Below, piece by piece: positions 40,113-57,480 of a DNA stretch of 61,868 nt. The position numbers and the translations under genes are program-made. The DNA is from a virus (lineage: Duplodnaviria; Caudoviricetes). Every line of letters begins with the position of its first letter. The stretch's first letter is position 1. The notes under the pieces were generated by a model that saw only the letters and a program-made list of their open reading frames with translations, searched no databases and had not been told where the DNA came from. The stretch is taken from positions 1-61,868 of IMG/VR virus record IMGVR_UViG_3300048599_000826. One strand, 5' to 3'.

Positions 40113-40396
40113 GCGCACCACGTCCCATGATCCAAGCCCACCAGGCTTACACCTACGCGAGCGCGTGTGAGCTGCTCGACGTCAGCCGGATGACGCTGTA
40201 CCGGCTGATCAAGGCGGGAGTCCTCAAACGCACAGTGCTCGCGTCGGGCGGCAAGCGTGGGATTCAGCGCATCACGGGTGAGTCGCTTCTGCGGGCAGCG
40301 TCGGGCCATGGTCCGAAGGCGCCACCACCTCGGCCGCCGATGGTGCTGGAGCGACCGAAGCGTCCGCTTGGTGTTCGGCCGAAGGCTTTTGTGTGA
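40109..40396 (+). CDS. xis: excisionase (MerR-like HTH)
   Basis: YTYASACELLDVSRMTLYRLIKAGVL adjacent to int. Confidence 0.75.
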   Translation: MSAPRPMIQAHQAYTYASACELLDVSRMTLYRLIKAGVLKRTVLASGGKRGIQRITGESLLRAASGHGPKAPPPRPPMVLERPKRPLGVRPKAFV

Positions 40397-41744
40397 GGAC
40401 TAGACGCGACCGCAGTTCACGTGTGATGAGGAGTAGATCGTGCATCTCGCTGGGATCCAGATAGAACGCCTGACGAACGCCGCCGGTGCTGTGGCCTTCG
40501 AAGAGACTGCGCGCGTCACTCGACGCCCCCGAGCTGCTCGCGAAAGTCGTCGCCGTGTGGCGCAGGCAGTAGAAGCCCCGCTTCATCAGCGGCTCGATCT
40601 TCTTCTCGCACTCAGGACAGAACATGCCCTTCCGGGCAAAGGGCCGACGCTCAACGATGCCGTGGACTTCGCACGAGCCCAGGCGCATGACCAGCCGTTC
40701 GAACTGCTGAGCCAGGTTGTCCGTCACATTCACACTTTCGATCAGTTGGTTCTCGTCGCGCTTTACGTTGTTCATCAACATCGGCCCGCCCGACTTACTC
40801 CGGAACATCAGGTGCCGGGTTTGCGGAGTCGCCTTTCTGCCGCGCAGTTCGCCGATCGCCGTTACGACTTCCGGCGGGACGATCGCGTAGCGATCCATCT
40901 CCGTCTTTGGTCTGGGGAAATAGATCATGCCCCAGCCGGCCGGGATCTCATCGTTGCGGCCGTGGAAGTGGATCCGCTGCGCCTGCTGATAAACGGTGAG
41001 GGCGTTGGTCGGCACTTCCGAGATATCCGTGTTGCCGTACGCGGCGTAGTAGCCCAGCAGGATGGCCGCCTTCAAAGGCTGTCGCGCATACCGAAGCATC
41101 GCGTGGATCTCGGGCACCGTCCAGGACCGCAGAACACCCTCGGCCCGGTCTTCGCGGTGCCGACGTCGGACTTCGCGCACGCTGCGAATCTCATGCAGCT
41201 CGACCCACTTGAATGGCCGGCCGAGGATGCCACGGCTTGGAGAACCGGCCCAGTTCCACATTGCAGCAACGGACCGCACGGTGCGGTTGTAGGCGTGCAC
41301 ACCAAGCCTGATGCGCAGCGCCTTGAGGTAGACGCGAATGGTGTCGGGATCCGCCTCGAGCTGGGCAATGGTGCGATCGAGGCCGACGACGTTGCCGTAG
41401 TCGGTCAGCGACCCCCGGGCCTCGGCAAAAGTTCGCACGTCGAGTTCCCCGGTTTCGGTCCGCTCATGCTTCTCGGCCAGGTAGGCGTTGATCACTTCGC
41501 GAAGGGTGTTGTCGAAAGGCCGGGCGGCATTGTGCAGACCCTTCGCCCTCGCCTCGAGCAGTTCATGGTAGCGGTCCAGCGCCGCCTGCCACGTGGCTCG
41601 ATACTCCGGATGATTGGCCGGCCGCGTCGGTCCGAACGACTGCTGTCGGCCGTCGATTTTCGCCTTCCAGCTGCCGCAGGCGTGCGCGAAAAGCGGGAAC
41701 GTGGGATACGGTTTGGGAATACCCTTCGGTCTAGAAACGGCCAT
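40272..41744 (-). CDS. int: prophage tyrosine integrase
   Basis: KPYPTFPLFAH N-domain, FPRPKT, FYCLRHT, EGHS...FY. Confidence 0.88.
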   Translation of the reverse strand: MAVSRPKGIPKPYPTFPLFAHACGSWKAKIDGRQQSFGPTRPANHPEYRATWQAALDRYHELLEARAKGLHNAARPFDNTLREVINAYLAEKHERTETGELDVRTFAEARGSLTDYGNVVGLDRTIAQLEADPDTIRVYLKALRIRLGVHAYNRTVRSVAAMWNWAGSPSRGILGRPFKWVELHEIRSVREVRRRHREDRAEGVLRSWTVPEIHAMLRYARQPLKAAILLGYYAAYGNTDISEVPTNALTVYQQAQRIHFHGRNDEIPAGWGMIYFPRPKTEMDRYAIVPPEVVTAIGELRGRKATPQTRHLMFRSKSGGPMLMNNVKRDENQLIESVNVTDNLAQQFERLVMRLGSCEVHGIVERRPFARKGMFCPECEKKIEPLMKRGFYCLRHTATTFASSSGASSDARSLFEGHSTGGVRQAFYLDPSEMHDLLLITRELRSRLVLTQKPSAEHQADASVAPAPSAAEVVAPSDHGPTLPAEATHP

Positions 41745-41907: not shown

Positions 41908-41976
41908 TTGATTTTCGTGAGAAAATCCACTTCCTTTCGGTAACTGACCCCACTTTTTGAGAGTCTGTGTCCCACA

Positions 41977-41998
41977 CGACACAGGTTCCGACACAGGT
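41977..41998. repeat. tandem CGACACAGGT repeats, probable arm sites of island integrase
   Basis: Two perfect 10-mers at 41977 and 41989. Confidence 0.65.
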
Positions 41999-42004
41999 GG
42001 CGTC

Positions 42005-43075
42005 ATGCGAAGCGATCTTCCGTCCATCCCATATCCCGAGTTTCCGCTGCGTCCCCACAGGAACGGGCAGTGGTGCAAGTCCGTTTGGAATGCTCACTCG
42101 CATCGCAGCGAAATCAAGTATTTCGGTGCATGGCACGACGATCCCAAAGGAGAGCGGGCCCTGCATGATCCGGCCACGGGCTGGCTGACGCGTCGCACGG
42201 CCATCAAGGCCGGTACGGATCACTTGCGGTTGATCGCAAGCGTCGATTCGACCGCCCTCACTTTGGGGGAGTTGATGGGCCGCTTCCTTCAGTTCAACAA
42301 GCGCAAGGTGGATGCCGGCGATCTCTCGCTCCGGACCCTCAACGATTATCTGTGCGAACTCCCGAAGTTCGTGACGTTCTTCGGACCGCAGACGCCCGTA
42401 AGCGGGATGCTGGCGGAGCATTTCTCCGCTTACATGACGCATTTGGTCAGTGTGCGCAAGCTGGGCCGTTACGCGCGGCGCCGAGTTCGGGTGAACATCA
42501 ACGTGATGCTCAACTACGGCACCAAAAACGGCTGGATGCAGAAGCCGCCGACGGGCAGCGATTGGGTGGCTCCGGCAATCGATCCGGAATCGATGCGGGT
42601 CGCCAGAATGCGTTCGGGCAAGCCCGATCTCCAGAAACGCATCTTCACCGGAGATGAGATCGACCAGCTCTTGTCGATCGCGACGCCCGCGTGGAAAGCG
42701 ATGATCCTGATCGCGGTGAACTGCGGACTCGGGCCAGCGGATGTCGGCCGGCTCCGCTGGAAGAATCTGTCAATGACGACCGGCAGACTGGACTATCCCC
42801 GCGGCAAGACCGGCGTTGCCCGCGTCGGCTACCTGTGGAAGAAGACACGTCGCCAATTGGAGTTGGTGCGGAATCTGAAACGCACCCGGGCGGCGGTCGA
42901 GAAAGATGGTGACGAAGCGCTCGTCTTTCTCAGCGAACTCGGCAAGCCTGCGATTGCCGCAGCCGCTGCTGCAGCGCGGCCAGATGTTCGAGCATGGGCA
43001 CTTCCTCCCGCGGCGATCGCCCTGCTGACTGCCGCCGCGCTTCTTTGCTCGCCAGCCCTTCCGGCACATCCCTGA
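42005..43075 (+). pseudogene. tyrosine integrase, C-terminally truncated
   Basis: PYPEFPLRPH N-domain, NCGLGPADV, YPRGKT; no HxxR/Tyr; sequence becomes low-complexity after ~42950. Confidence 0.75.
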
Positions 43076-43355
43076 AATGCGAGAAGGCGATCCGCACCTC
43101 AGGGAGGTGGTTCTCCAGCCAGTCGTGCAAGGCGGGAAGGTCGCGAGACCAGGTCTCGCCGGCTTCCGAGACCGATTGCAGGTAATAGGATTTGTCGGCC
43201 TTGATCAGGACGGTCTCGCCGATGGGAAGGAGCAGCACCTGCATCCGCTCCTGCGGATGCCACCACGCGGTGACGCTGACGCGATAGTCGATGCCGCCGA
43301 TGGCAGTGAAGCCGGCCGCTCGAAGGGCATCAGTGTAGAAGGTGTCGACGGACAT
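42930..43355 (-). CDS. hypothetical protein, probably truncated at the same junction
   Basis: Start overlaps upstream gene; runs into integrase sequence. Confidence 0.5.
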   Translation of the reverse strand: MSVDTFYTDALRAAGFTAIGGIDYRVSVTAWWHPQERMQVLLLPIGETVLIKADKSYYLQSVSEAGETWSRDLPALHDWLENHLPEVRIAFSHFRDVPEGLASKEARRQSAGRSPREEVPMLEHLAALQQRLRQSQACRVR

Positions 43356-43911
43356 GCTGCACCATCCAACTTGAGGAGCGGCCAAGGAGTCCGAGCAACC
43401 ATCTACCGCGAGATGGCCGATTCTCGTGCAAGCCCAATCGCGCCGCCTGAAGTTGCAGAGACAAATGAGCCCGCTGGTCGTTGAGCCGCAGCGCCTCGAT
43501 CTGAGTACCAAGTCGCTGGTGAGCGATGTGCCGTTCGAAAGCAGCTTGTTCCTGATTCCGCTGGTTTTCCTGAATCTGCCGCAACACCAGTGCTTGCCGA
43601 CACACGTCGCAGACGGTCAGGATCTGCGTTCCGCCAAAGCCGCGGCGGCAACGCCCACAGAGTTGGCGCTGGCAGACCTGGCAGCGGCTGACACAATGAT
43701 CACAGCATTCACGAGTTCGGCAGACATCACAGACGCCGCGCGATTGGTCGACGTCCGTGACAAACCGCCCGCAGCCGGAGCAGGCGCGGGCGGTTCGCTC
43801 GTCGCTGAAGTGGATATGGCCGGCATCGTCGTCCGTGACCCGCTCGAAGCGGATCGCAATCGGGACGCCGGCCGCATCGCGGGTCACATACCGCTTGAGG
43901 ATGCGCCGCAT
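43330..43911 (-). CDS. 13-Cys multi-zinc-finger plus coiled-coil protein
   Basis: CSGC, CDVC, CCDHC, CQVC, CGRC, CDVC then Gln-rich helix; AGGAGG RBS. Confidence 0.75.
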   Translation of the reverse strand: MRRILKRYVTRDAAGVPIAIRFERVTDDDAGHIHFSDERTARACSGCGRFVTDVDQSRGVCDVCRTRECCDHCVSRCQVCQRQLCGRCRRGFGGTQILTVCDVCRQALVLRQIQENQRNQEQAAFERHIAHQRLGTQIEALRLNDQRAHLSLQLQAARLGLHENRPSRGRWLLGLLGRSSSWMVQHVRRHLLH

Positions 43912-44771
43912 ATCGCCTCCTGTTCAGATTGACGGATCGCCGCGCAATCCGGGCACCCCTCCTCGTGCAGCATCTCCAGCGCGATCGTGTTGAAGCTGAA
44001 GTTCGCCGAGTGGTTGCCCAGGTACTGGCCGAAGAGGTCCTTGCCGCCCATCGTGTAGGTCGGGTCGATCTTCACTTGCAGGAGATTCCGATGACCGAGT
44101 TGGGCGATCATCCGGCCCATGCGATTCTCCGCGCCGGCAGTGATCAGGCCGACGGCGATCTGGCCGGCAATGGCGTCGACGAGGTGAAGATCGAAGATCG
44201 TCCCGCCGGTGCTCGGCACGGTCGTAACCGGCGCGGCGAGCCCGCGTGCGTGTTGCTCGAACGCCTGATAGCGCGAACTGCACACGCAGCGGAAACAGGC
44301 GGGCGTGACACCAGGGGCGTAGTGAACGATCTCGCCGGCTCGGGCGTCCCGGTAAAGACCGATCCAGAGCGCCGGCTTGCTCAATCGCAGCGCCTCCACG
44401 TTGCCGCGGGCCTGCGCGGGGAAGGAGTCGGTAGCGAAGATCAGCAGATCGCTGCCTCCCAGGTGTTGGTCGATCTCTTCCTGCGAGAGTTCGCAGAAGT
44501 TGCGCAGCAGGTAGGTGACCTGAACATCGGGATTCAGTCGCTTGAGCGAGGCCGCCAGCGCCTCGGCCTTGTAACGGCCCACATCCGCCAAATCGAAATC
44601 CTGCCGGCTGGCGTTGCTGGCTTCGATGCGGTCGAAATCGATGTAGGTGACGGCGCCGAGTCCGCTGTGGACCAGGTCGCGGGTCAGACCATACGCGCCG
44701 CCGACGACGGTGACGTGGGCCTGCTGCATGCGCTCGACGTCGATAGAAGAACAAATTCGATCAAAGTTCAT
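43884..44771 (-). CDS. ThiF/E1-like adenylyltransferase
   Basis: IDFDRIEASNASRQ, VGRYKAEAL, LNPDV, ATDS, CFRC and CPDC Zn sites; AAGGAG RBS. Confidence 0.9.
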   Translation of the reverse strand: MNFDRICSSIDVERMQQAHVTVVGGAYGLTRDLVHSGLGAVTYIDFDRIEASNASRQDFDLADVGRYKAEALAASLKRLNPDVQVTYLLRNFCELSQEEIDQHLGGSDLLIFATDSFPAQARGNVEALRLSKPALWIGLYRDARAGEIVHYAPGVTPACFRCVCSSRYQAFEQHARGLAAPVTTVPSTGGTIFDLHLVDAIAGQIAVGLITAGAENRMGRMIAQLGHRNLLQVKIDPTYTMGGKDLFGQYLGNHSANFSFNTIALEMLHEEGCPDCAAIRQSEQEAICGASSSGM

Positions 44772-44845
44772 GACCAGACTCCTTAAGTTGAGGACTCGAT
44801 TCCTTGTTGGGCGTGCTCACGGGCTCGCCATGGGTGAATGACGGT

Positions 44846-45343
44846 TCACAGAAGACGCAGCACGGTCCTTCGCGGAACCTGAGGCTGCGAACGCAAGACG
44901 ACGATGGGCATCAGGCGGAACTGATGCGGAATGACGATCGGCGCGATGAACATTCCCATGTCCGGGTTGATCTCCAGCAGGCGGCGGATGTAGATCAGGT
45001 CGCCGCCGCTGAGGCGATCCAGCGTGCCGGGGTGCGAATGGACGAACCCTTTGAAGTCGAGGCTGTACGGCATCCACTCCTCTTTGAGCTTTCGACGAAG
45101 GGTCACATGGTCCGGCGAGTACGTCGCGCCGCTGCAACTGGCGGTCACGTCGAAGTAAAAACCGGTCACCTCGTCGCTGCCGATGGGACCGAGCAAAATG
45201 CCGCCGGTCTCGGCCGGCAAAGCGCAGACGCTGCTGAGGATCTGGCAAAGCACGTGCTTCGTCATGACGATCGGTGGCACGATGGACGTGTCCACGGACG
45301 CCGACTTGGGCGTGAGGGAAGTTGTCTTTGTCGAGCGCCGCAT
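44846..45343 (-). CDS. JAB/MPN (JAMM) isopeptidase
   Basis: ETGGILLG, FVHSHP, LSGGD. Confidence 0.9.
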   Translation of the reverse strand: MRRSTKTTSLTPKSASVDTSIVPPIVMTKHVLCQILSSVCALPAETGGILLGPIGSDEVTGFYFDVTASCSGATYSPDHVTLRRKLKEEWMPYSLDFKGFVHSHPGTLDRLSGGDLIYIRRLLEINPDMGMFIAPIVIPHQFRLMPIVVLRSQPQVPRRTVLRLL

Positions 45344-45371
45344 CGATCACCTGCTTGTGGTTGTTGAATGA

Positions 45372-45539
45372 TTACGATTGGGCCACGCCGGTTCGGCGAT
45401 ACTCCAGGAAACACTCCGCCCATTGCGCGGCCAACTGCTTGGCGCGTGACATGTCGCGCGGCTGGCGCCCCTCTACAAAACAGATCTTGCCCGAATCAAA
45501 CAGATGCGTGAGATGCGGGTTCTGTGTCAAATCTGACAT
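45372..45539 (-). CDS. 55-aa E2/UBC-like protein or C-terminal fragment (absent from ORF track)
   Basis: MSDLTQNPHLTHLFDSGKICFVEGRQPRDMSRAKQLAAQWAECFLEYRRTGVAQS; H-x-F-x-SGKIC resembles the UBC HPN..GxIC active site. Confidence 0.6.
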   Translation of the reverse strand: MSDLTQNPHLTHLFDSGKICFVEGRQPRDMSRAKQLAAQWAECFLEYRRTGVAQS

Positions 45540-46129
45540 TAGCTCGGAATGGTTAGGCCAGGCCGCTGAATGAGGTCACGCGGCAATTGGATGCCATTTG
45601 CCTCCGCGACAGCGAACATCATCGATCTTGGTGACTGCCGCCATATCCAGTATGCCTGCTCAACCGGTGTACCTGGGAACTGAGCCGACTCAGGCAGCTC
45701 TTGAAACCGCTTGAACACCGCAAGCACTTCGTCACTTAGGAAGTAATACTCCAATCGCGTCTGATTTCTCTCAATGGCGTCTTCTGCGAGTGCCAGAAAG
45801 AGTCCCATCGCGAAGTCAATTCCCTCGCCGCCCTGCGTGTCCATGGGCAACGCCAAATCCGGACGGCCATTGAATGCCTCGTGGGGCTCGGCGTGGCAGC
45901 GGCTACACAAGGTGATGCCATTCCCAGGCGAGAACTGCGCGAAGGATAGAAACGACTTGCGTATGATGTGGTGGGCAGAAAGGCCCTTGGTGCCGTGGCA
46001 AAGTACGCACTGATGACCATCCCGTGCCCGAATGAACTGACTCCATCGACGGAGGCAATAGGTTTTGCTTCGGCCAGACTCAACTGCAGTCATCAGTTTC
46101 TGCAGTGCTTGATCAACGTCCGTTTTCAC
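45539..46129 (-). CDS. HNH endonuclease
   Basis: IRARDGHQCVLC, AHHI, NGITLCSRCH. Confidence 0.85.
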   Translation of the reverse strand: MKTDVDQALQKLMTAVESGRSKTYCLRRWSQFIRARDGHQCVLCHGTKGLSAHHIIRKSFLSFAQFSPGNGITLCSRCHAEPHEAFNGRPDLALPMDTQGGEGIDFAMGLFLALAEDAIERNQTRLEYYFLSDEVLAVFKRFQELPESAQFPGTPVEQAYWIWRQSPRSMMFAVAEANGIQLPRDLIQRPGLTIPS

Positions 46130-46299
46130 AAAATCAGCTTATCATGATGTCGCGGAGATCGCTCGAATCCGCTTCCATCCTTGATGGCTCATCGCCCCGT
46201 CCGCTCCCGGAGTTGCGAGTACGTCGCCGTGCAAGATGGTTTCGTGCTGAGATACAAAACACATCCCTATTGCGTGAGTCAAAGCGATATAATCATGCC

Positions 46300-46719
46300 G
46301 TGGACAAAATAACGTCTCAGCAGCGTAGCGAGAACATGAGGAAAATCCGTTCCTCCAACACAAAGCCGGAGTTGCATGTGCGGAGTATACTGTGGAAGGC
46401 GAATTACCGTTTCCGCCTTCATGCGACCAACCTCCCCGGCCGGCCGGATGTCGTCTTTCGGGGTAGGAAGAAAGTGATTCTTATCCACGGATGCTTTTGG
46501 CATCAACATCCCAGATGCAAGGAAGCTAGCACACCGAAATCAAACCAGTTCTACTGGGAGCAAAAGTTACGCTTGAACGTTCATCGTGATCGGAAAACAC
46601 TAACGGCATTTGAGGAACTGGGATGGAGGGTTTTGGTGATATGGGAGTGCGAGGTGTTCGATGCAAAGCTCGAACGAAGGCTGCGCGCGTTCTTAGGCCC
46701 GCCATCATCAGCCGATTAA
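46300..46719 (+). CDS. vsr: very short patch repair endonuclease
   Basis: RSENMRKIRSSNTKPE, LPGRPD, HGCFWH, GWRVLVIWEC. Confidence 0.93.
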   Translation: MDKITSQQRSENMRKIRSSNTKPELHVRSILWKANYRFRLHATNLPGRPDVVFRGRKKVILIHGCFWHQHPRCKEASTPKSNQFYWEQKLRLNVHRDRKTLTAFEELGWRVLVIWECEVFDAKLERRLRAFLGPPSSAD

Positions 46720-47993
46720 GCAATCGCTGTCTTGCCTTCCAACACCCACTTCAGGTATTCCTGTCGATCATAACCTGACGCTTCAAGCAAGTCCGCCTGA
46801 GCGGTCACTAGCGCGTCTCGTAAGCCCGTTTCCGCTGACAGAAGTTCGTCAACATCCCTTACAGTTTCAGTCGCACTTAACATCGCCATCGCAACGTCCT
46901 TCTCTGAAGGTGCGGTCGACAGCTGTGGAGCCAACGCCGAGAGGCCGGTTTGGTCAGCCGGCAAAACGAAATGTGGCACCATCACAAAGGCCAATGAAAG
47001 CATTTCGACCTGCTTATGGTAGTCAGTCCGGTATCGATAAGCCGACACGAGCTTGACCTCGCAAATCGGTGTGCCACTCAACAAGATTTTGCATAACCAC
47101 TTTCCGAGAATGACCCCGAAATTCCCCGTAAGTTGATCTATATTTAGCTTTGCAATATCGCAATAAGGCTCGTCCTTCGTGAGCACTCCGGGCATCCTCA
47201 CACTCATCGCCTTATCAAATTCTGCATGGTCCCTCATGTTTTCACAGGTCGGTCCAATTAGTTTGACCAGCTCTTTAAGGCCGATAACTGAAGGATCAAT
47301 TTGAGTGGTGACAAACAACACCCATCGATTCGATTGGTACTGCACTTGGTATTTGAGCAGTTGGTCCAAGGCAGTGTAGATCGCCTCGGTCTTCTCGACG
47401 TCATCGCCTGGAACCAATGAATCACAGAGATCAAGGTTGATCGCGTCGTATGGACCTTCGCGTTTGAATTCGTGCCACGCTTTCGCATTTGATTTTCCGA
47501 TATCCTGAAATCGATGTGCCTTAACGCGGGAGCGTTTTGCGACGCGATCCCTCATGGTGAGAGCTGCTTCTCGCTTTTGGGACTGATCCTTCGACTTTGG
47601 ACTATTCAATGCCTCATTGAAGCCAAGAAACTGAAGTGTGCAATTTTCGTCATGCACAATGCCTACCGCAGTATGCAAGTCAAGGAGGTCATCGCCCGGC
47701 AATGTAAAGTACCTGACAACGCGGCCAGCAGTTTCCGCCACTGATTCGATTTCGGCGTCGCCACCATCATCCGGCGAGGTTGCTTCCGGCTGCGGCGACG
47801 CTGGCTTCCGCTTAATCTCCTGTATGAGTCGCAGGAGGCTCGCATTCCACTGCCGCACTCGAATGAAGTGCTTATGCGTCCGATGCCAAGGCTTGAAATC
47901 AGAAACCTTTGTAGGTTCAAGATGGGTAGGCACTTCACCCTGGACGATGTCACCTCCAAGATCAGATGGTTCACCCAAATCCGGTTTGCTCAT
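46716..47993 (-). CDS. hypothetical protein with SAM-dependent methyltransferase-like fold
   Basis: FKPWHR, YFTLPGDDLLD, GPYDAINLDLC; coupled to ATPase gene. Confidence 0.65.
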   Translation of the reverse strand: MSKPDLGEPSDLGGDIVQGEVPTHLEPTKVSDFKPWHRTHKHFIRVRQWNASLLRLIQEIKRKPASPQPEATSPDDGGDAEIESVAETAGRVVRYFTLPGDDLLDLHTAVGIVHDENCTLQFLGFNEALNSPKSKDQSQKREAALTMRDRVAKRSRVKAHRFQDIGKSNAKAWHEFKREGPYDAINLDLCDSLVPGDDVEKTEAIYTALDQLLKYQVQYQSNRWVLFVTTQIDPSVIGLKELVKLIGPTCENMRDHAEFDKAMSVRMPGVLTKDEPYCDIAKLNIDQLTGNFGVILGKWLCKILLSGTPICEVKLVSAYRYRTDYHKQVEMLSLAFVMVPHFVLPADQTGLSALAPQLSTAPSEKDVAMAMLSATETVRDVDELLSAETGLRDALVTAQADLLEASGYDRQEYLKWVLEGKTAIA

Positions 47994-49957
47994 TGTTCCC
48001 CCTCAAACAGCATCACTTCAGCTATTTCTCTGAGCAATTGCTCCTGTTGCTCATGCCTCAACTCCTTCAGCAATCCCCAAGTGGACAAAATTTGGGCGAC
48101 GGCAATCACTTTTTTCTCGACCAACGCGGCTCGCTCGTTACCCACACCAGTTCGTCTCTGCGCAACTGAGGTAGGTAACACTTCCGCGCGCCGAAACGCG
48201 AGCGCTCCATCGCGCCGCAACCTAGCAGCGTCCTTGCTGTCCTGATTTTCCGTTAGAAACTCGACTCGTGGCAGATCATCAACACCCCGCGACTCCAACA
48301 TTTCTGCGACTTTATTATCGAGCGCCTTGCGCGTAACTGTTCCCAGTTTTTTCAGTCGATCCGCTCGAACCGCCTTGCCCAGTTCTTTACTTTTATTCGC
48401 CAACTGCCTGATTGCTGAGTGAAGCCACTTCAAGACAAACTGATAGTGTGGGTGCGAATAGTTGAATGATTCCCGGTCCAGATTAATCGCCGCCTCAAAA
48501 CCCTCTTTTATGAAAATCTCAGCCGTTATTTGTCGAAGTCGAGTTTGCTCTGACACTGGGTAGCCCATAAATGTGCGGTCGAACAATGCGCCTGTAGCAT
48601 TTCCGACTCGAATCAATACACCTTGGTGCTGGGTCGGAACAACTTTTGGCGTCCAGAAGAGGTAAGCCTCAAACTCCAATGGTCCACCGGAAAGTTCTCG
48701 CGGCTTGCCTTTGAACTCCTCACGGCATGCACCGACAAACAAGAGGGGCGTTGTGAGCGCGGCAGTTCCCTTCGGCTGCGACTCAAAAACGATCGGTCGC
48801 GCAAGTTGGACTCCGTCGATTTCGACTCTGAACCCTCCATGCTTCCCGCCCGCGGTTAACTTCATCGCTGTCCGAGGCGTTTCTTTGCGCTTTAGAGAGA
48901 GTTGGGTCGATTGCCCGCGCAACGTATTACTTAAACGGAAGAACATTACATCGTCGTCTTCGAGGTCGAATGGATGGGACTGGAGGTAGTCTATTGGCGA
49001 GGCGAGGGCGAGGGTCCAGATTGTTTGAAGGTATCGGTCGCATAGCTTCTCTAGGTCGACCAACTCACGAACTGTGAACGCCTGTTCACGCACTGAATCA
49101 ACGAACGATCGAAATTTCTCCAAAGCGGCGCTAGTAACTTCCCATGGTGCAGACTCCTGCTCCAGCAGTTTTCCGGGATTCTTCAGATCGATGCGACCAA
49201 TATGGAATTTCGGAGGGTCGAGTTTCGTTTCGTGATCAATATCTTCTGGGTTCTGCTGATTTTGAAAATCGAGCCGCGCCCACCAGTCCATGCTCGCTAG
49301 TTCGGCCTTTGTACGAGGCAATAAATCGACTAATCTTATCTCTGTACCGTGTGACTCATACTCGTCTCTGGAAACTCGCTCCCGATAAATTCGGGCCTTT
49401 CCAGTTTCAATCTCCGGCTTATCGCTGCGGTCGTCCGTTTTTGCCTTTGTGATTCGTTCACCTTCGATCGCCCCAAGCGTGATGTCTGCCACTGTACGGT
49501 ACTTGTCATTTTTCTGTTTCGTGATTACTACAAAGTGCCGTGTAAATTGAGCGACGGCAAAGAGGCCGATCCCAAGTTTCCCGATAAGTTTTCGACCCTT
49601 CCTACTGAAGTTTGTGTTGACTGCTGTGATGTTGAGGTCTTTACCATCGGTGGTTCGCTTGGCACTACCGCCGATGTTCTTCAGCATGTGAGCTAGCGTA
49701 TTGGCGGACATTCCATCGCCATCATCGCGAACGGTAATGGACTCGAATTGCGGTGCATCGGTGAGGATGATGACCTCTGTTGCGTCGGCATCGTACGCAT
49801 TAGAGATGAGTTCGCGAAGTGCAGAAGCGGGTTGCCGGTAGATACCGTCCGTGATTCGTGCTAACACGCGTTCGTTGGTGGTAAGCGTTGTGTTTACCGG
49901 TTCGTCATCCGTGGATGCTGCGATTCTAGCGGAAAGGTCTTTTTCGTCCTTTGTCAT
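47990..49957 (-). CDS. GHKL (MORC/MutL/Hsp90-like) ATPase
   Basis: ALRELISNAYDA, DDGDGM, GKLGIG, HGTEI. Confidence 0.9.
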   Translation of the reverse strand: MTKDEKDLSARIAASTDDEPVNTTLTTNERVLARITDGIYRQPASALRELISNAYDADATEVIILTDAPQFESITVRDDGDGMSANTLAHMLKNIGGSAKRTTDGKDLNITAVNTNFSRKGRKLIGKLGIGLFAVAQFTRHFVVITKQKNDKYRTVADITLGAIEGERITKAKTDDRSDKPEIETGKARIYRERVSRDEYESHGTEIRLVDLLPRTKAELASMDWWARLDFQNQQNPEDIDHETKLDPPKFHIGRIDLKNPGKLLEQESAPWEVTSAALEKFRSFVDSVREQAFTVRELVDLEKLCDRYLQTIWTLALASPIDYLQSHPFDLEDDDVMFFRLSNTLRGQSTQLSLKRKETPRTAMKLTAGGKHGGFRVEIDGVQLARPIVFESQPKGTAALTTPLLFVGACREEFKGKPRELSGGPLEFEAYLFWTPKVVPTQHQGVLIRVGNATGALFDRTFMGYPVSEQTRLRQITAEIFIKEGFEAAINLDRESFNYSHPHYQFVLKWLHSAIRQLANKSKELGKAVRADRLKKLGTVTRKALDNKVAEMLESRGVDDLPRVEFLTENQDSKDAARLRRDGALAFRRAEVLPTSVAQRRTGVGNERAALVEKKVIAVAQILSTWGLLKELRHEQQEQLLREIAEVMLFEGEQ

Positions 49958-51021
49958 TTGCGCTCCGGTACCTGATCCAGAATTGCCGCCATCACGGCTT
50001 GCGCAAGTTGCGGGGGCACGGCATTAGTCACCTGTTCCATTTGATTGGCGAACGATCCGTAAACCCGAAAGCTGTCCGGAAAACCTTGGAGTCGACATGC
50101 TTCGCGCACGGTGATGCTCCTCGGCTCTGAAAAATGTGCGGGCGGTGCCCTATGGCCAGAGAATAGAGTATTGGACTGGCGGGTGGGATGAAGCCGCCTG
50201 TAAGACATTGGTCCGCTTCCGGGAGCGATCTTAGAAATCTTCAATTTGACAGCGTTGGAGTGGCGCATTGAAAAATGATTGGAGACCGTGCCGTCATCCT
50301 CGTCATCGATGTATTTTGTTGGTCTCTCCTGGGCGTGCGGAAGACCAGCGAGCGCACTTGCAACCGTGACCGTCGGCCTATGAAATTGACGAACGACGTC
50401 GACTACTCGATCCTTATCGATGCGTGTTTCGGTGACCAGGAAGAACGCACGCATTCTTTTTTGTGCGATACCAAAATCTGAGGCATTAAGAACCATGTGT
50501 GTGACGCAATAGCCGCCGTCTCGTAGAACACCTTCAAACTTGCCGACTCGGTTTCCATTCTTGGCCGCCATCAGCATGGACACATTTTCCACAAGCGCAA
50601 AATTTGGCCTCAGAAAAGTAACCGCTCGAGCCACCGCGACTAATACTTGATTTCGTGGATCGGCGGGATCGCGAGAGCCAGCCGCGGAAAAGCCTTGGCA
50701 AGGTGGCCCAGAAATCAAGCCGCGTCGCGAGGCCTTGGGCGCACAGTTCAACAACTTCCGACAAGTATCTAGTTGTTTTGATGAACGAACGCTCCCGAGA
50801 ATCGCATGCGCGCGCGGGAAATTTCTGGAAAACGTCCGCAAAGCAGTAGCATTCACATCGATTCCCGCCAGCACCTTCATTCCCGCCTGCTGTGCAGCCC
50901 AAGTAAGGCCGCCCATTCCGCAACAAAGATCGATGACGTGCGGCTGCGACGGAACGATACCGGTTTCCATTTCGCTTTGCCCTGCCGATGATGAAGTGAC
51001 GACCCGCGCTGGTTCTTCCAC
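49954..51021 (-). CDS. dcm: C5-cytosine DNA methyltransferase
   Basis: DLCCGMGG, GPPCQGFS, ENV, QKRMR, REACRLQGF, NAVPP. Confidence 0.95.
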   Translation of the reverse strand: MEEPARVVTSSSAGQSEMETGIVPSQPHVIDLCCGMGGLTWAAQQAGMKVLAGIDVNATALRTFSRNFPRAHAILGSVRSSKQLDTCRKLLNCAPKASRRGLISGPPCQGFSAAGSRDPADPRNQVLVAVARAVTFLRPNFALVENVSMLMAAKNGNRVGKFEGVLRDGGYCVTHMVLNASDFGIAQKRMRAFFLVTETRIDKDRVVDVVRQFHRPTVTVASALAGLPHAQERPTKYIDDEDDGTVSNHFSMRHSNAVKLKISKIAPGSGPMSYRRLHPTRQSNTLFSGHRAPPAHFSEPRSITVREACRLQGFPDSFRVYGSFANQMEQVTNAVPPQLAQAVMAAILDQVPERK

Positions 51022-51486: not shown

Positions 51487-52815
51487 TCAAGCCAAAACTT
51501 CAACCGCAACTCGATTATCCACATCGTCGCGCTTCGCTCTATCGTGTCCCTCGCCGCCGTCAATAAAGTCCGCATTCCGCTCGCCATCGAAAACATCGTC
51601 GCCCGCGCCGCCATAAAGACGGTCGTTGGCGTTTCCGCCGACAAGCGTATCGTTGCCGGCTTCACCGTAGAGACGATCGCCGTGGCTGTGGCCCACGATC
51701 ACATCGTCTCCGCTCCCGCCGTAGAGACGGTCATTTCCGCCATGGCCGTATAGTCGGTCATGCCCTCCGTGACCGTTGATTCGATCGTTGCCACCGTTGC
51801 CGGAAAGCGTGTCTTTGCCGGACGCGCCAGAGAGAGTGTCGTTTCCAGTCCCGCCGGTGACGCTGTCGTTGCCCTTCCCGGCCTCGATCTGACATGGTTG
51901 GGAGAGGGAAGCGCAGTCGATGATATCGTTCCCATCCCCTCCGAAGACCTCAACACGCTTCACCTTCGAGAAAGCAAAAGCAGCCCCGGCGCCGTTAACG
52001 GTCGCGCTCACACGCAGGACGCCCCTCACGGTGGCTCGTGTGACCATGATCTTGTCGTTGCCGCCTGTTCCGGTAACGCTCAGCACACCGCCGGTGAGTG
52101 TGGCCACTGGCGGCGGGACGGGAATGGTCCCGGTGGCGGCGCGGTTCAGCACCTCATTCCATCCGCCATCCTGGGTGCCCGCGGGCAGCGCGTTCTGCCA
52201 GTTCCACCCGAGTTGCGTCACGCGCCCCTCGCCGACCGCGATCGTCGTCACGGCGGGCTGGTCGCCCTGATATCGGTACGGCATCTTCGTGCCGGCCGGG
52301 TAGCCGGCACTGAGAAGGAAAGTGTCGTCATTGTTGGGGAGCGTCGCCGGCCCCCCGGAGAATGGTGTCCCAGTCGCTTCGGACTCATCGAGCGTGATCG
52401 GCGCACCCGACTCGTAGTATTGGAATCCGATGGTCCATCCGAAGATATCGTTGAGGAGTTTGCTGTTTCGGAGCGACCCTCGAACGTCGCCGGCGCTGAT
52501 CAAGTCGCCGCCGGCAGTCACGAACTCACGGATCGCGTCATTGCCGCCGAAACTGTAAAGCCCGGCACGGAGATCGCCGTAGATCAGGCTCGGCAGCACG
52601 AGGGCATCGGCTCCGGCAAGTGAAGCGGCGGTCGAGAAGATGAACTCGTTGGCGGAGGGGATCGTGCGAACGGTGTGCCCTGCCGCTTCGAGAACGATGC
52701 GGAGGTTGTCTGCGGACGAAGCCGGCAGATCCCGCGTGTCCACATAGGCCGGATCATCGAAGAGTGCGATGACGGCAAGTAAGCGGCGCGGCTCAAGCGA
52801 ATCAATGAGGTGCAT
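51487..52815 (-). CDS. planctomycete LEPR-XLL protein with hemolysin-type Ca-binding repeats
   Basis: IDSLEPRRLLA N-motif; many GGxGND nonapeptides. Confidence 0.88.
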   Translation of the reverse strand: MHLIDSLEPRRLLAVIALFDDPAYVDTRDLPASSADNLRIVLEAAGHTVRTIPSANEFIFSTAASLAGADALVLPSLIYGDLRAGLYSFGGNDAIREFVTAGGDLISAGDVRGSLRNSKLLNDIFGWTIGFQYYESGAPITLDESEATGTPFSGGPATLPNNDDTFLLSAGYPAGTKMPYRYQGDQPAVTTIAVGEGRVTQLGWNWQNALPAGTQDGGWNEVLNRAATGTIPVPPPVATLTGGVLSVTGTGGNDKIMVTRATVRGVLRVSATVNGAGAAFAFSKVKRVEVFGGDGNDIIDCASLSQPCQIEAGKGNDSVTGGTGNDTLSGASGKDTLSGNGGNDRINGHGGHDRLYGHGGNDRLYGGSGDDVIVGHSHGDRLYGEAGNDTLVGGNANDRLYGGAGDDVFDGERNADFIDGGEGHDRAKRDDVDNRVAVEVLA

Positions 52816-52847
52816 GGCTTCTCCGTCTGTCGAGGTAGAGAACGACT

Positions 52848-53285
52848 TCACTTGTTGGTCTGGGTCTGCGTATTAGCTGAGCCGCCAAAGGCGCTGGAGC
52901 GCATCGCGGTGTCGCTCGTCTGGTCGCTGAACTCGTAGTCCCGGACGACGTCGCTGGCGTCCACGATCACCTGAAGGTTCTGGGTTCGCGCGGTTTGCCG
53001 ATCCGTGGCGGGGATGAGGCCGCCGACGAACGGGATCAGTCGCTTGCCGTCAAACTGGTAGTTCGTCTGGTGGCTGGCGTAGACGAGCATCCGGCGACCG
53101 TCGCCCATCATCTGCGTTGCGATCGGCTGGCCAAGCCGGTCGATGACTTCCTGCCGGGTGGTGACGCCCTTCTGAATGGAGTTGACGGCATTCTGATCCA
53201 GCTTGGGGCCGGTGCTGGTCGAGGTGCTCGTGCAGCCGGACAGGAGAATCAGGCAGACAAAGGACGAGAACATTCGTAACGACAT
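52848..53285 (-). CDS. SmpA/BamE-like lipoprotein
   Basis: Lipobox LSGC; IQKGVTTRQEVIDRLGQP. Confidence 0.8.
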   Translation of the reverse strand: MSLRMFSSFVCLILLSGCTSTSTSTGPKLDQNAVNSIQKGVTTRQEVIDRLGQPIATQMMGDGRRMLVYASHQTNYQFDGKRLIPFVGGLIPATDRQTARTQNLQVIVDASDVVRDYEFSDQTSDTAMRSSAFGGSANTQTQTNK

Positions 53286-54393: not shown

Positions 54394-54692
54394 GGTGATG
54401 ATTGATGACTGGTAATGCCTCCATTCTATCACAGGCCGAGCAAGCACTCGCGCGACGACACGGGCTGCTCTATAATGAATCGGTCTGCATCGCTGTCCTC
54501 TCTGACGATCGGCCCCGTCTCCATTGCCTCGACGACTCCAGACCAGCGGCATGTCGTCGATCGCGTCCAAGCCTCCACACCACGACGCAGGGGCGAACGA
54601 CGCGCGAAGGACGCGCATCCTTTGTCGGAGTGGGGACGTGCCCGGGCATCAGGATCTCGCATCATGCCTGCGCTCGGCATATCTGTTTCGTC

Positions 54693-55970
54693 ATGGAAGA
54701 GGATTTCATTCAACTGGGCACGTTCGAGCAATGGGGGAATCGTCATCCCTTCGGCTTGCTGCGCGCCGATCGCCGGCAACATCTCTATGTGGTCGGCAAG
54801 AGCGGGACGGGGAAGTCCACCTTGCTTAAGAACCTCCTGATTCAGGCGATCGAATCGGGCGAGGGCGTCGCATTGATTGACCCGCACGGCGATTTGTCGC
54901 TGGAGCTATTGGACGCGATTCCGCCTTGGCGGACCGACCACGTCGTCTATTTCGACGCGGCGGATGCCGAGCATCCGATCGGGCTGAATCTGCTTTTGAC
55001 CAAAACGGAACACGAGCGGCACCTGGTCGTCTCGGGCATCGTCGGCGCGTTCAAAGGGATCTGGGGGGACTCCTGGGGGCCGCGCCTCGAATACCTGCTG
55101 GCCAATACCTTGTCCGCCTTGCTGCACGCGCAGAATGTCAGCCTGCTCGGCGTGCCGCGCCTGCTGACCGACGAGCGCTATCGCGACTGGGTCGTGCGGC
55201 AAATCACCGACCCGGTCGTCCTGCGCTTCTGGCAACAGGAGTACGAAAGCTGGGACCAGCGGCAGCGAACCGAGGCCGCGAATCCCATCCTCAACAAGGT
55301 CGGCCGGCTGCTGACCTCGCCGCTGACCCGCAACATCCTGGGGCAGGTGAAGAGCCGCATCGACGCCGAGTTCATCATGAACCATCGGCGGATCCTCATC
55401 GCCAACCTGTCCAAGGGACGCATCGGCGCTGACCACGCGAACCTGCTGGGCGCTTTGCTCGTCGCCCAGTTCCAACTTGCGGCATTGCGGCGGGCCGGGC
55501 AATCCGAGCAGGAACGCGTCGACTTCAGTCTCGTGGTGGATGAGTGGCACAACTTCGTGACCGAGGATTTTGCGCACATCCTGAGCGAGGCCCGCAAGTA
55601 CAGACTCGGAATCGTCCTCGCCGGCCAGTTCATCGCCCAGACGCAGCCGACCCTGCGCGACGCCGTCTTCGGCAACGTCGGCACCATCCTCTCATTCCGA
55701 GTCGGGGAGTCGGATGCGACGATGCTGGCGCGGGAGTTCGGCAATGATTTCACCACCGAACACTTCACCGATCTCGACAACCACGTCGTCTGCATCAAAG
55801 GGTTAGAGGACGGCCGGCAGCGGGTGCCGTTCGTCGCCAGAACGCTGCCACCCGTCGGGAACCACTACGGGTGCCGCGAGAACCTAATCCGCCGCTCGCG
55901 CGAGCGCTTCGCTACGCCGCGAGCAATGGTGCAAGACAAGATCGCCCGCTGGTTCTCATCCCATCGCTGA
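54693..55970 (+). CDS. type IV coupling protein-like (TraD/TrwB/DUF87) ATPase, no TM anchor
   Basis: DRRQHLYVVGKSGTGKS, IDPHGD, VVDEWHNF, SEARKY. Confidence 0.88.
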   Translation: MEEDFIQLGTFEQWGNRHPFGLLRADRRQHLYVVGKSGTGKSTLLKNLLIQAIESGEGVALIDPHGDLSLELLDAIPPWRTDHVVYFDAADAEHPIGLNLLLTKTEHERHLVVSGIVGAFKGIWGDSWGPRLEYLLANTLSALLHAQNVSLLGVPRLLTDERYRDWVVRQITDPVVLRFWQQEYESWDQRQRTEAANPILNKVGRLLTSPLTRNILGQVKSRIDAEFIMNHRRILIANLSKGRIGADHANLLGALLVAQFQLAALRRAGQSEQERVDFSLVVDEWHNFVTEDFAHILSEARKYRLGIVLAGQFIAQTQPTLRDAVFGNVGTILSFRVGESDATMLAREFGNDFTTEHFTDLDNHVVCIKGLEDGRQRVPFVARTLPPVGNHYGCRENLIRRSRERFATPRAMVQDKIARWFSSHR

Positions 55971-56185
55971 GCACGTGCTGTCCCTTCACGGCAGAATTGA
56001 ACGTGCATATGCGGAAGCATCGCAGCGCTCGCATCGCACCCGTCCCTTCTCGCGCCGTCACCTTCGCCCCTTGCGCGTGGTTCCGACTCGTGATTTGCTG
56101 ATGGTGGAAGCACACACCCGCACGTTCCTGATCTCGTGATCTAGCGCCTGTTCCTTGTCATCCCCAATCCGAAAGGAGTCTCGAC

Positions 56186-57052
56186 ATGGCGAGTCCCACC
56201 CGCCGTCAGCGTGCTGGCACACGTTTGCCAGCGCCACAGCCCCCATCGTTCGCACAGTTGCTCGTCGAGGCCGTCAACACGCCCGGCGTCCTCAGCAGCG
56301 CGTACGAAGCGTTCTGGAACTACTCGATCGGCAACCAGTTGATCGCCCTCTTCGAATGCCACAGACGCGGCATGGCGCCCGGGCCCATCCACACCTTCAA
56401 AGGTTGGATCAAGCTCGGACGACAGGTCCGCCGCGGCGAGAAGGCGATCGAACTGTGCATGCCGGTTTCGTGGGCGGTGAAAGCCGATCCGCAACCGCGG
56501 TCGCAGCCCGACGAACAAGCCGCGGAACCGGTCCTGGTCCGACGGCGCTTCATCTTCAAACCGCATTGGTTCGTGCTCGCGCAAACGGATGGATCGGAGT
56601 ACGTTCCGCTTGCGATCCCCGCCTGGGAGGAAACACTGGCACTGAGCACGCTCCTGATGGAGAAGATTCCCTTCACGCTCGTGAACGGCAACGCGCAGGG
56701 ATACGCCCAGGCCCGACAGGTGGCGGTCTCGCCCGTGGCCCATCTTCCGCACCGCACGCTGATCCACGAGATCGCCCACATCGTCCTCGGCCACACCACC
56801 GAGATCGCGAGCCTGGTCGATCACGAGGAGCGGACGCCTCGCGAACTTCGTGAGGTCGAAGCCGAGTCGGTCGCGTACTTGGTGACCCAGTCCCTGGGTC
56901 TGCCCGGCGAGGCCTTCAGCCGCGGTTACCTTCAGCACTGGCTGGCAGGTGAGCAGATCTCCGAGCGCTCCGCGCACAAGATCTTCCACGCCGCCGACCA
57001 GATCCTCAAAGCCGGTCGGCCCAAACCGATCGACGAACCTTCCCACGCCTGA
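56186..57052 (+). CDS. ArdC-like ssDNA-binding antirestriction protein
   Basis: YSIGNQL, W.KLGRQVRRGEKA, HEIAH, EVEAES. Confidence 0.85.
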   Translation: MASPTRRQRAGTRLPAPQPPSFAQLLVEAVNTPGVLSSAYEAFWNYSIGNQLIALFECHRRGMAPGPIHTFKGWIKLGRQVRRGEKAIELCMPVSWAVKADPQPRSQPDEQAAEPVLVRRRFIFKPHWFVLAQTDGSEYVPLAIPAWEETLALSTLLMEKIPFTLVNGNAQGYAQARQVAVSPVAHLPHRTLIHEIAHIVLGHTTEIASLVDHEERTPRELREVEAESVAYLVTQSLGLPGEAFSRGYLQHWLAGEQISERSAHKIFHAADQILKAGRPKPIDEPSHA

Positions 57053-57147
57053 GCTGTTTCACACTTTCAACCGTTGTGATGCGCACCGATTTCCGATCGC
57101 CCGTCGTGTGACGGGTCGGGAGAGCGTGCGCGCCCAACCAAAGGAGA

Positions 57148-57480
57148 ATGGTCATGAGCAAGTCGAGTCGTACTTCGTCTGCTGTCCGTACCAACGATTC
57201 CGAGACGCGGCCCGAGAACCCATCGGACGACAAGCGTCCCGTTCACACCATCCGTTACCGCAACCTCAAGGGTGCGATCTGGAAGAACGCCGGCGGCAAC
57301 GGCGACTTCTACACCGTCACCTTGAGCCGCGCCTACCAGGACAAGCAAGAGCAGTGGCATGACGTGACGAGCTTCAACACCGGCGACCTGCCGATGCTCG
57401 CGAAGCTCGCCAACGACTGTCACAGCTGGATCACCTGGCAGGAGCGGAAGGCAACCGAGGAGAAGGGAGAACGCCAATGA
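57148..57480 (+). CDS. small ssDNA-binding-like protein
   Basis: AIWKN..FYTVTLSRAYQD..W...SF motif; AAAGGAG RBS. Confidence 0.65.
   Translation: MVMSKSSRTSSAVRTNDSETRPENPSDDKRPVHTIRYRNLKGAIWKNAGGNGDFYTVTLSRAYQDKQEQWHDVTSFNTGDLPMLAKLANDCHSWITWQERKATEEKGERQ

Follow-up and report, generated by a model that had tools for sequence, protein, structure and literature searches.

A probably decayed copy of a conserved Planctomycetota cassette in a viral metagenome record, with E1-, E2- and JAB-like genes beside a zinc-finger protein and a HerA ATPase

Introduction

The Cap2/Cap3 proteins of cyclic oligonucleotide-based antiphage signalling systems (CBASS) and the Bil and Bub systems are known prokaryotic relatives of ubiquitination, and each new family has changed the picture of how protein conjugation evolved. 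In the available sections of the Chambers et al. 2023 preprint, the Bil operon has the order ubiquitin-like protein (Ubl)-E2-deubiquitinase (DUB)-E1, and in those of the Ye et al. 2024 preprint (PMC11601596) the Bub E2s are without a catalytic cysteine and use serine or tyrosine oxyester chemistry, with type I Bub consisting of BubAB, a Ubl-E2 fusion, and BubCD, a JAB-E1 fusion. Here we describe a related locus in IMG/VR provirus record IMGVR_UViG_3300048599_000826, the whole 61,868 nucleotides of which are referred to as the window. Four of its genes had been read in an earlier note, made from the sequence alone, as a ubiquitination-like operon composed of an E2-like protein, a JAB peptidase, an E1 and a zinc-finger/coiled-coil protein (hereafter the Zn protein). 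Comparison with related loci points to a somewhat different view, in which the window locus is probably a decayed copy of a conserved six-gene cassette of Planctomycetota, with a conjugation-type module placed on a core made of the Zn protein and a HerA-type ATPase.

Results

The cassette in the window and in related loci

Six co-directional open reading frames (ORFs), including an HNH gene, occupy the minus strand between 42.9 and 46.1 kb of the window. All four genes described in the earlier note are present, with every sequence feature that it listed. In the direction of transcription these are a 5′-truncated ORF of 55 aa (45372-45539) that contains the string HLFDSGKIC and a C-terminal helix ending in ...EYRRTG; an intact JAB/JAMM metallopeptidase of 165 aa (44846-45343; Pfam Prok-JAB) with the motifs ETGG, HSHP and SGGD; an intact single-domain ThiF/E1 adenylyltransferase of 295 aa (43884-44771; Pfam ThiF) with a four-cysteine zinc site; and the intact Zn protein of 193 aa (43330-43911), with six CxxC pairs and C69. 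Overlapping the 3′ end of the Zn gene is a 141-aa ORF (42930-43355, minus strand, ATG at 43355), which tblastn to a full-length homologue identifies as a 3′-truncated HerA/FtsK-type ATPase gene. The locus is bounded by two genes that are not cassette members: an HNH endonuclease gene (45539-46129, minus strand; Pfam HNH_2/HNH), the stop codon of which is overlapped by the ATG of the 55-aa ORF, and a truncated tyrosine integrase gene (41957-43075, plus strand; Pfam Phage_integrase, profile positions 3-105 of 172).

Profile scans yielded seven metagenome loci and four genome loci, and a later genome search added L022; the close set that bears the Zn protein thus comprises 13 loci, namely the window and 12 related loci from Planctomycetota (L002-L012 and L022). 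The four genome loci are in a Phycisphaerales metagenome-assembled genome (MAG), a Tepidisphaeraceae MAG, a Phycisphaerae MAG and the chromosome of Planctomycetales ZRK34. The single Zn protein gave no locus among genome contigs, and the Zn profile then gave four. Within the first 11 loci fetched, tblastn matches to the Zn protein are present in all 11, to the 141-aa ORF in nine, to E1 in seven, and to the JAB protein and the 55-aa ORF in six each, at 38-71% amino-acid identity. The neighbourhood comparison that the earlier note had proposed as a check therefore finds homologues of the window proteins together in related loci, and the association of its four genes is not a chance one.

The intact gene order is a small motif ORF, a short E2-like protein that we call the mini-E2, JAB, E1, the Zn/coiled-coil protein and the HerA ATPase, and the whole cassette together with upstream sequence is present in six loci (L007, L009, L010, L011, L012 and L022). 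E1 lies directly upstream of the Zn gene in 9 of the 13 loci (the window, L006-L012 and L022) and not in the other four (L002-L005), and the HerA gene is directly downstream of the Zn gene in all 11 loci that continue past it, the sequences of L005 and L008 stopping inside the Zn gene. The arrangement of genes in the window itself is seen in no related locus.

At both of its ends the window copy is matched by full-length homologues only in part. By tblastn, the 55-aa ORF corresponds to residues 50-95 of 96 in one full-length mini-E2 and 57-101 of 101 in another, with no match to the remaining N-terminal half anywhere in the 61.9-kb window, and the ORF is therefore without the beta-sheet half (residues 1-49) of the protein. 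The 141-aa ORF matches ATPase residues 4-138 of 744 with 51% identity, and tblastn gives no further match in the window to residues beyond about 138, including the P-loop part; the pattern of the motif ORF is also absent from the window. Because the matches at the mini-E2 and ATPase ends are partial, the window copy is truncated at both ends. This agrees with the suspicion in the earlier note that both flanks are cut, and comparison with the intact loci confirms its suggestion that the locus is a remnant. Its four genes do not make a complete operon, the 55-aa ORF being half a gene, the motif ORF gone and the HerA ATPase cut.

The place of the motif ORF and of the 5′ half of the mini-E2 gene downstream of it is taken by a restriction-modification island, with the HNH gene as its left edge. 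No homologue of the HNH gene was found in this position in any related locus, and the GC content drops from about 0.62 to 0.50-0.54 at the island, beginning with the HNH gene and continuing to about 51.0 kb. At the other end the integrase gene is convergent with the ATPase stub and abuts it, and its homology to the L009 integrase stops near 42849. With half of the E2, the motif ORF and the ATPase motor gone, the window copy has most likely lost its function as a system, and annotation as a working one is not warranted. The cassette seems prone to disruption by mobile DNA. A second, independent remnant is present in L024 (9740-10291; G641), where only the last ~26 residues of the mini-E2 (...AQWAEYYLNYIATG) are left, within an ORF that overlaps a serine-recombinase-type zinc-ribbon gene.

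This rare cassette has its home in integrative elements of Planctomycetota, mainly in Phycisphaerae-type genomes. In samples of 401 genomes each, the mini-E2 profile matched 2 from the phylum and 6 from the class, and the Zn profile matched 9 from the class. Among the other IMG/VR records neither a single-sequence scan with E1 nor a profile scan with the mini-E2 gave a related locus, and the Zn protein has no tblastn match in 50,697 INPHARED phage records or in 72,556 PLSDB plasmid records.

The Zn protein and the HerA ATPase

What stays constant in the family is a core formed by the Zn-HerA pair, which occurs with three conjugation-type gene sets and once with none. Apart from the mini-E2, JAB and E1 genes described above, the pair is followed in L002 and L003 by an NYN nuclease, a Prok-E2_E protein (PF14462; 2.5e-06 and 8.5e-06) and a JAB-E1 fusion. 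L036 and L037 have, in this order, an ~80-aa protein, a 170-175-aa protein without assignment, JAB, E1, two small membrane/zinc-ribbon proteins, the Zn protein and HerA, and in L038 the Zn-HerA pair stands without E1 or JAB nearby. The ~80-aa proteins of L036 and L037 share 33% identity, and their ends align at ...EVG, where one of them stops and the other adds GNA; they have no Pfam match, and phmmer against the Protein Data Bank (PDB) gave only chance-level rows. From their size, their position and the shared C-terminal ...EVG we infer that they are candidate Ubls. By analogy, three gene sets on one core would be the pattern of Cap2/Cap3 on CBASS.

The 13 cysteines of the Zn protein (the six CxxC pairs and C69) are invariant in 17 of 17 homologues. 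An AlphaFold2 model (predicted local distance difference test, pLDDT, 83) has N-terminal beta hairpins, then zinc knuckles (residues 44-104) and helices (102-158 and 167-191). Foldseek ranks the Rim2 zinc finger and FYVE domains first (probability up to 1.00; target TM-score, TMt, 0.60-0.67), which superpose with root-mean-square deviations of 2-3 Å over ~51-59 columns, and PHD/PZP fingers next; there is no row at E <= 0.001, the cross-brace fingers having E >= 0.03. The protein has no match in Pfam (including its zinc-finger and Prok-RING families), PADLOC or NCBIfam. As a single query it has four homologues among 5.8 billion proteins, and a profile of 17 sequences finds 113 clusters, all unnamed or 'hypothetical', with Planctomycetes, Sedimentisphaerales and Victivallales MAGs as the named sources of the family; a search of the ESM Atlas gave sub-threshold unnamed clusters (best 0.76). 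In fold class the Zn protein may resemble the FYVE, RIM and PHD fingers, the E-values being non-significant, and it is unlike them in that all 13 ligands are cysteines with very short spacings; the likeness implies neither lipid binding nor E3 activity. The earlier note had compared it to RING and B-box adaptors: the broad cross-brace class is probably right, but the role as an E3 and the binding of E2 that were proposed with it are unsupported. A complex prediction for the mini-E2 and Zn protein residues 1-125, run without controls, spoke neither for nor against an interaction (score 0.00; mark 0.32).

Full-length homologues of the ATPase are 718-758 aa in length, have a Walker A motif, and match Pfam DUF87/HerA (2.9e-08 to 4.8e-09) as well as the PADLOC models HerA (~1e-14; 8.1e-15) and mad8 (1.6e-19). 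Pfam finds nothing in the 141-aa ORF of the window, a fragment that ends before the P-loop ATPase domain. The ATPase has its own N-terminal region of ~340 residues with a coiled coil, for which the ESM Atlas gave unnamed clusters (0.92) and no family.

The JAB and E1 proteins

The JAB protein matches Pfam PF14464 Prok-JAB (E 5.3e-07, 30 bits against a cutoff of 25) and, weakly, PADLOC JAB (4.4e-05), and an alignment of nine homologues keeps its JAMM residues E45, H102, S103, H104 and D115 without exception. In L007 (7972-9103) a tandem pair of JAB paralogues is present in one cassette, the first with HSHA for HSHP.

The E1 protein matches Pfam PF00899 ThiF (E 3.7e-22, 79.1 bits against a cutoff of 28.1). 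In PADLOC its matches are to the Cap2 'E1-E2' models, over the E1 part only (best 1.6e-15), and in NCBIfam to ThiF/MoeB-type models at far sub-threshold scores (ThiF 69 bits against 275); among solved relatives ThiF, UBA5 and UBA7 rank above MccB (1.1e-05) and PaaA (6e-05). Members of the family are single-domain proteins of 280-307 aa that start directly with the Rossmann fold. Nine aligned sequences share the invariant residues G24, G37, D45, D47, N53, R56, Q57, K68, D115, C159, C162, C273 and C276, the zinc-binding CxxC pairs C159/C162 and C273/C276 being kept in 9 of 9. No cysteine outside this zinc tetrad is invariant in the nine sequences; C164 of the window protein, for example, is alanine in L010 and L012. 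Because only zinc-ligand cysteines are invariant in E1, a canonical thioester between E1 and a modifier seems unlikely, and transfer from the adenylate directly to the E2 would be expected instead.

The mini-E2 family

The full-length mini-E2 proteins of the cassette loci are 96-120 aa long, and a wider set of 79 homologues ranges from 89 to 168 aa, none with a Pfam domain; a full-library search with the mini-E2 profile gives 361 cluster representatives (E <= 0.001). Cys66 is invariant in an alignment of 34 sequences and His58 at least 90% conserved, within the context K-T-H-L-F/Y-x-S-G-x-I/L-C, and both residues are kept in the 55-aa ORF of the window. The canonical E2 active-site pattern is HPN...G.IC. 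The same alignment shows a C-terminus of W-A-E-Y-F-L-E-Y-R-R-T-G plus about four residues. The idea that E1 adenylates this end was set aside, because many relatives have long extensions beyond T-G.

The AlphaFold2 model of the L010 mini-E2 (pLDDT 89.6) has three strands, the cysteine loop and one long helix. In a Foldseek comparison with the PDB, E2 and UEV proteins, including Ubc9, UFC1, Ube2T, Rad6 and Vps23, make up 38 of the 45 rows listed, and the best row by TM-score is 8hsb_B, the E2 of the CBASS CdnG-E2 complex (probability 0.91; query TM-score, TMq, 0.61). A search of PDB sequences with the mini-E2 profile gave nothing relevant. The model suggests that the mini-E2 is probably a minimal UBC-like fold.

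Two kinds of relatives have additional parts. P0103, P0106, P0110 and P0162 each contain two tandem mini-E2 domains, and P0111, P0115, P0128, P0133, P0159 and P0206 are fusions of repeats with a mini-E2 that have in common an amphipathic C-terminal motif, ...F-W-S/E-R/W-L-F-x.

The motif ORF and its 11-residue unit

In all six full cassettes a motif ORF of 52-81 aa lies upstream of the mini-E2 gene. The earlier note had expected intact loci to supply a missing Ubl; the slot instead carries this small motif peptide and probably not a beta-grasp protein, and no protein of the Ubl or CD-NTase families was found in any ORF scanned in the window and the intact loci, in line with what the earlier note had reported for the window. 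The peptide starts with M-x(2-7)-N-x-I/V-x-G-x-F-x-G-x-E/D-I/L-E-P-G-T/V-F-H, after which comes a variable acidic tail. When the loci are compared, nearly all nucleotide differences within the motif are at third codon positions, which argues that the ORF is translated and under selection. A scan of 13 loci found the pattern nowhere besides this ORF, neither the ORF nor its unit is covered by a Pfam family, and the motif strings were found in no paper in a search of literature full text.

The unit recurs in more distant loci. L023, L025 and L026 encode a JAB-E1 fusion followed by a Clp-type AAA_2 ATPase in place of Zn-HerA, and the ORF upstream is a tandem array of an 11-aa unit with a repeat period of 33 bp. 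The arrays are (GGDEIPPGTFH) x4 in L023, (GEDDIPRGTFH) x4 in L026, which ends ...GTFH-stop, and (GDEELPPGGFR) x3.6 in L025, which ends ...GGFR-stop. The same unit is fused to mini-E2 proteins: among the best 150 of the 361 representatives, one or more full units precede the E2 domain in 23 and two or more in 12, P0129 carrying 15-16, and in 37 the unit end G-T/G-L/F/W-H/R is a few residues before the E2 core. Successive units are spaced by 11 residues in 35 of 48 cases, and the consensus is G-G-E-E-I/L-P/K-P-G-T/G-L/W/F-H/R/C with a conserved acidic pair.

In L023 (6108-8030 and 10606-11382) the set of repeat ORF, mini-E2 and JAB-E1 (with Clp) is situated between a ribonucleotide-reductase-like ORF, recognized by eye, and a radical-SAM protein. 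The flanks are the same in L026 (6667-8985 and 13058-14164), the radical-SAM assignment being by Pfam for the L026 copy only, and these common flanks may reflect either shared synteny or a functional link.

Genomic context

Beyond its truncated ends, the block of the window in which the cassette lies also has integrases, an HTH_17 protein, a TraD-like DUF87 ATPase, a primase, Replic_Relax and ParB. The restriction-modification island (45539-51021) encodes the HNH protein, Vsr, a PP_RS20740-family protein (NCBIfam 4e-81), a BbrUII/HgiDII-like GHKL-ATPase enzyme, in which this domain is Pfam HATPase_c_3, and a Dcm C5-methylase; the cassette adjoins it within a mobile island, and the placement on an island beside defence genes that the earlier note had proposed is supported. 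Integrative and conjugative genes occupy 54402-61868 and include the TraD/HerA-like DUF87 ATPase of the surrounding integrative element (54402-55970, plus strand; Pfam DUF87), a DnaG-type primase, Replic_Relax and ParB. The cassette is outside the phage structural module, which occupies 15987-24283 and encodes TerL, portal, ClpP-like prohead protease, HK97-type capsid and gp10-like tail component.

The TraD-like ATPase of the window is 44% identical to that of L009 (13220-14596), and those of L009 and L002 share 43%. It adjoins the cassette in L009, L002 and the distant L015, and is 9 kb away in the window. Further neighbours in relatives are an integrase (L007 and L010), a serine recombinase (L012), a primase (L009) and an HTH_17 protein (L022). 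The cassette looks like cargo of integrative elements rather than of phage. A search for att-type direct repeats around the island gave just short two-copy families without clear meaning.

L015 (G289; 5108-15219) is a distant variant with a 92-aa mini-E2, JAB and E1, then a 228-aa membrane/coiled-coil protein without the zinc domain; it also has a 630-aa TraD-like ATPase and Replic_Relax, and a 1138-aa NACHT-FGE-sulfatase protein upstream. Two other features of the window may be mentioned. A 490-aa ORF beside the truncated integrase (40272-41744) has no Pfam match, and its C-terminal part is tyrosine-recombinase-like by eye in its R...H...Y spacing. At 51487-52851 are a 454-aa protein with five matches to RTX calcium-binding repeats (Pfam 1.3e-32) and then a BamE-like lipoprotein; no relation of the RTX protein to the cassette was seen.

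Discussion

Weighing the readings

We consider it probable that the window holds a decayed copy of the six-gene cassette, and that the cassette is a conjugation-type module on the Zn-HerA core. In such a module, JAB would expose the C-terminal carboxylate of a modifier and E1 would adenylate it, the mini-E2 cysteine would then take the acyl group straight from the adenylate and pass it to a target, and conjugation might switch on or aim the Zn-HerA machine, by analogy with the regulation of the CBASS core by Cap2/Cap3. The modifier would not be a beta-grasp Ubl, and its best candidate would be the motif peptide of the Ubl slot.

Several observations weigh against this interpretation. The E2-like call made for the 55-aa ORF in the earlier note has moderate support from the conserved cysteine loop and the E2/UEV rows, but none of the Foldseek rows of the mini-E2 is at E <= 0.001, all having E >= 0.15, and the E2 models of Pfam, PADLOC and NCBIfam match neither the window ORF nor four full-length homologues. 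Compared by hhalign, the mini-E2 profile shows no similarity to the proteins in the E2 position of L037 and L003 (probability 0.2), and we therefore do not claim the three E2-position proteins as one family. In L004, which has mini-E2, Zn and HerA genes, neither JAB nor E1 lies between these genes or in the 350 nt upstream, and the mini-E2 may therefore have a role independent of E1. The C-termini of the motif ORFs are not conserved, a role of the cassette in defence is a matter of context only, and the three open full-length genes of the window could retain some residual function.

That the four genes of the window are a complete working conjugation operon, with the 55-aa ORF as a minimal E2 and the Zn protein as E3 or substrate, appears very unlikely. 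The JAB, E1 and Zn proteins are full-length with catalytic and ligand residues intact, and the 55-aa ORF, which keeps the cysteine loop, could be translated because its ATG overlaps the HNH stop codon; however, all 79 of 79 mini-E2 homologues are 89-168 aa and the window ORF is without residues 1-49, the gene downstream is an ATPase stub, and no related locus is arranged as the window is. It is just as improbable that the cassette is a diverged member of a described family, whether type II CBASS, Bil, Bub/6E or 6A-MBL. The Cap2 'E1-E2' models are the best matches of E1 in the defence library, E1 also matches NCBIfam 6A-MBL cap2_3 weakly (3.9e-10; 38.9 bits, cutoff 320), the order of modifier slot, E2, JAB and E1 is the Bil order as given in the available text on that system, and the distant relatives have a JAB-E1 fusion as does type I Bub in the sections available. 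Against this, neither the window nor the scanned intact loci contain a CD-NTase, MBL, DUF6527 or Ubl gene, E1 and E2 are separate genes with E1 a single 295-aa domain and not IAD-AAD-CYS, the mini-E2 cysteine is invariant whereas the Bub E2s, as far as the accessible sections describe them, have none, and the NCBIfam scores are far under their cutoffs. A sulfur-carrier or cofactor pathway that combines ThiF/MoeB with JAB (Mec+/CysO-like) has the faintest chance of all: ThiF and MoeB are by name the best curated matches of E1, yet their scores are far below the cutoffs (69 against 275 bits for ThiF), the context is a mobile island, and the scanned ORFs include no ThiS/MoaD, cysteine synthase, rhodanese or cofactor genes.

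The mobile setting of the cassette could also mean that it serves the element itself in transfer, partition or establishment, the ATPases being DNA pumps and E1, E2 and JAB their regulators. It is always found among integrases and recombinases, the TraD-like ATPase is adjacent in L009, L002 and L015, and Replic_Relax, primase and ParB are near; we nonetheless think this unlikely, since the cassette is absent from most such elements (with the mini-E2 in 6 of 401 and the Zn protein in 9 of 401 genomes of the class), it is exchangeable and has been destroyed in the window, which fits cargo better than a core function, its neighbours include conflict-type genes (NYN, restriction-modification and NACHT-FGE), and the ATPase matches the HerA models of defence systems in PADLOC. 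The repeat arrays bring to mind the maturation of ribosomally synthesized and post-translationally modified peptides (RiPPs), with the motif ORF as precursor, activation by E1, trimming by JAB, the mini-E2 as carrier or scaffold and export or unfolding by the ATPase. The tandem 11-aa units (3.6-4 of them in the L023, L025 and L026 arrays and as many as 15-16 in P0129), the conserved acidic pair and the presence of MccB and PaaA among the solved E1 relatives agree with such a pathway, which is distinctly unlikely even so: E1 is without an extra N-terminal peptide-binding domain and matches ThiF, UBA5 and UBA7 better, the cassette has no transporter or immunity gene, and the unit is strongly conserved between distant loci, which is unusual for RiPP cores.

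Within the preferred reading, a conjugation-type module on the Zn-HerA core, we can speculate further that the ~11-residue unit is a substitute for ubiquitin without the beta-grasp fold, with JAB cutting at the conserved glycine, E1 adenylating the C-terminus so formed, the mini-E2 cysteine transferring the peptide to targets and the ring ATPases, HerA-type in this cassette and Clp-type in relatives, recognizing or processing the tagged proteins. We regard this as doubtful. The motif ORF occupies the Ubl slot of Bil and that of the ~80-aa ...EVG protein of L036 and L037, the units are repeated head to tail like polyubiquitin, two of the arrays (L025 and L026) end three residues past the conserved glycine, and the unit is fused to E2 as is the Ubl in BubAB. 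Speaking against it, single copies persist at the N-terminus of stand-alone mini-E2s, where a docking element fits equally, the minimal E1 is without an obvious peptide-binding domain, and L004 keeps its mini-E2 in the absence of JAB and E1. If it is true that the peptide is the modifier, this would be E1/E2 protein tagging without the ubiquitin fold, coupled to a ring ATPase, and the motif peptide is the feature of the cassette most worth experiment.

Comparison with known systems

Because no CD-NTase, DUF6527 or Pfam-detectable Ubl was found in any locus scanned, the cassette does not fit CBASS, Bil or Bub. The distinctness that the earlier note had put forward is supported, the defining partner genes of each of the three being absent from the ORFs scanned. 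A combination of mini-E2, JAB and E1 with a 13-Cys Zn protein and HerA is undescribed in the sections available of Ye et al. 2024 (PMC11601596), Chambers et al. 2023, Iyer et al. 2006 (PMC1779556, Table 1 rows 6a-6e), Kaur et al. 2020 (PMC7159879), Gong et al. 2024 (PMC11601603) and one 2025 preprint. The same parts of these papers do not describe a repeat of 11 residues where a Ubl would be. Literature searches by term brought up, among the papers listed, none on this arrangement, and an earlier mention in print is possible.

The closest resemblance in organization is to Bil (BilABCD, types I and II; earlier '6C/6D'), which, as described in the available text, has the same gene order, separate E2, JAB and E1 genes, a cysteine-type E2 and a location in mobile or defence islands. 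Unlike Bil, the cassette has the motif peptide where a beta-grasp Ubl would be, its E1 is a single domain without a conserved catalytic cysteine in place of the IAD-AAD-CYS architecture, it adds the Zn/coiled-coil and HerA genes, and its mini-E2 matches no E2 hidden Markov model. The likeness to type II CBASS is in the use of E1, E2 and JAB without a classical Ubl as accessories to a separate core, as in Cap2/Cap3, although no CD-NTase or cyclic-nucleotide effector was found, E1 and E2 are unfused, and the core is Zn-HerA. With type I Bub (6E/DUF6527), as far as the accessible sections go, the distant L023, L025 and L026 share a JAB-E1 fusion, and the 23 unit-E2 fusions among the best 150 representatives recall the fused Ubl; the cassette differs in its invariant mini-E2 cysteine, in that no DUF6527 protease (BubE) was found, and in that the fused units are 11-aa repeats and not beta-grasp domains. 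Its partner, moreover, is a HerA- or Clp-type ATPase, unlike Bub. Defence systems built on HerA form a further point of comparison, the full-length ATPase matching PADLOC HerA and mad8 and Pfam DUF87. Known HerA partners include Sir2 and DUF4297; no known HerA partner was found, and the constant partner here is the 13-Cys Zn protein. Among bacterial E1/E2/JAB conjugation systems the cassette thus appears to be a variant not yet described, set apart by a ~100-aa cysteine-type E2-like protein that curated models do not see, an E1 without a conserved catalytic cysteine, a constant Zn/HerA core with three recruited gene sets, and a short peptide unit in the place of the Ubl.

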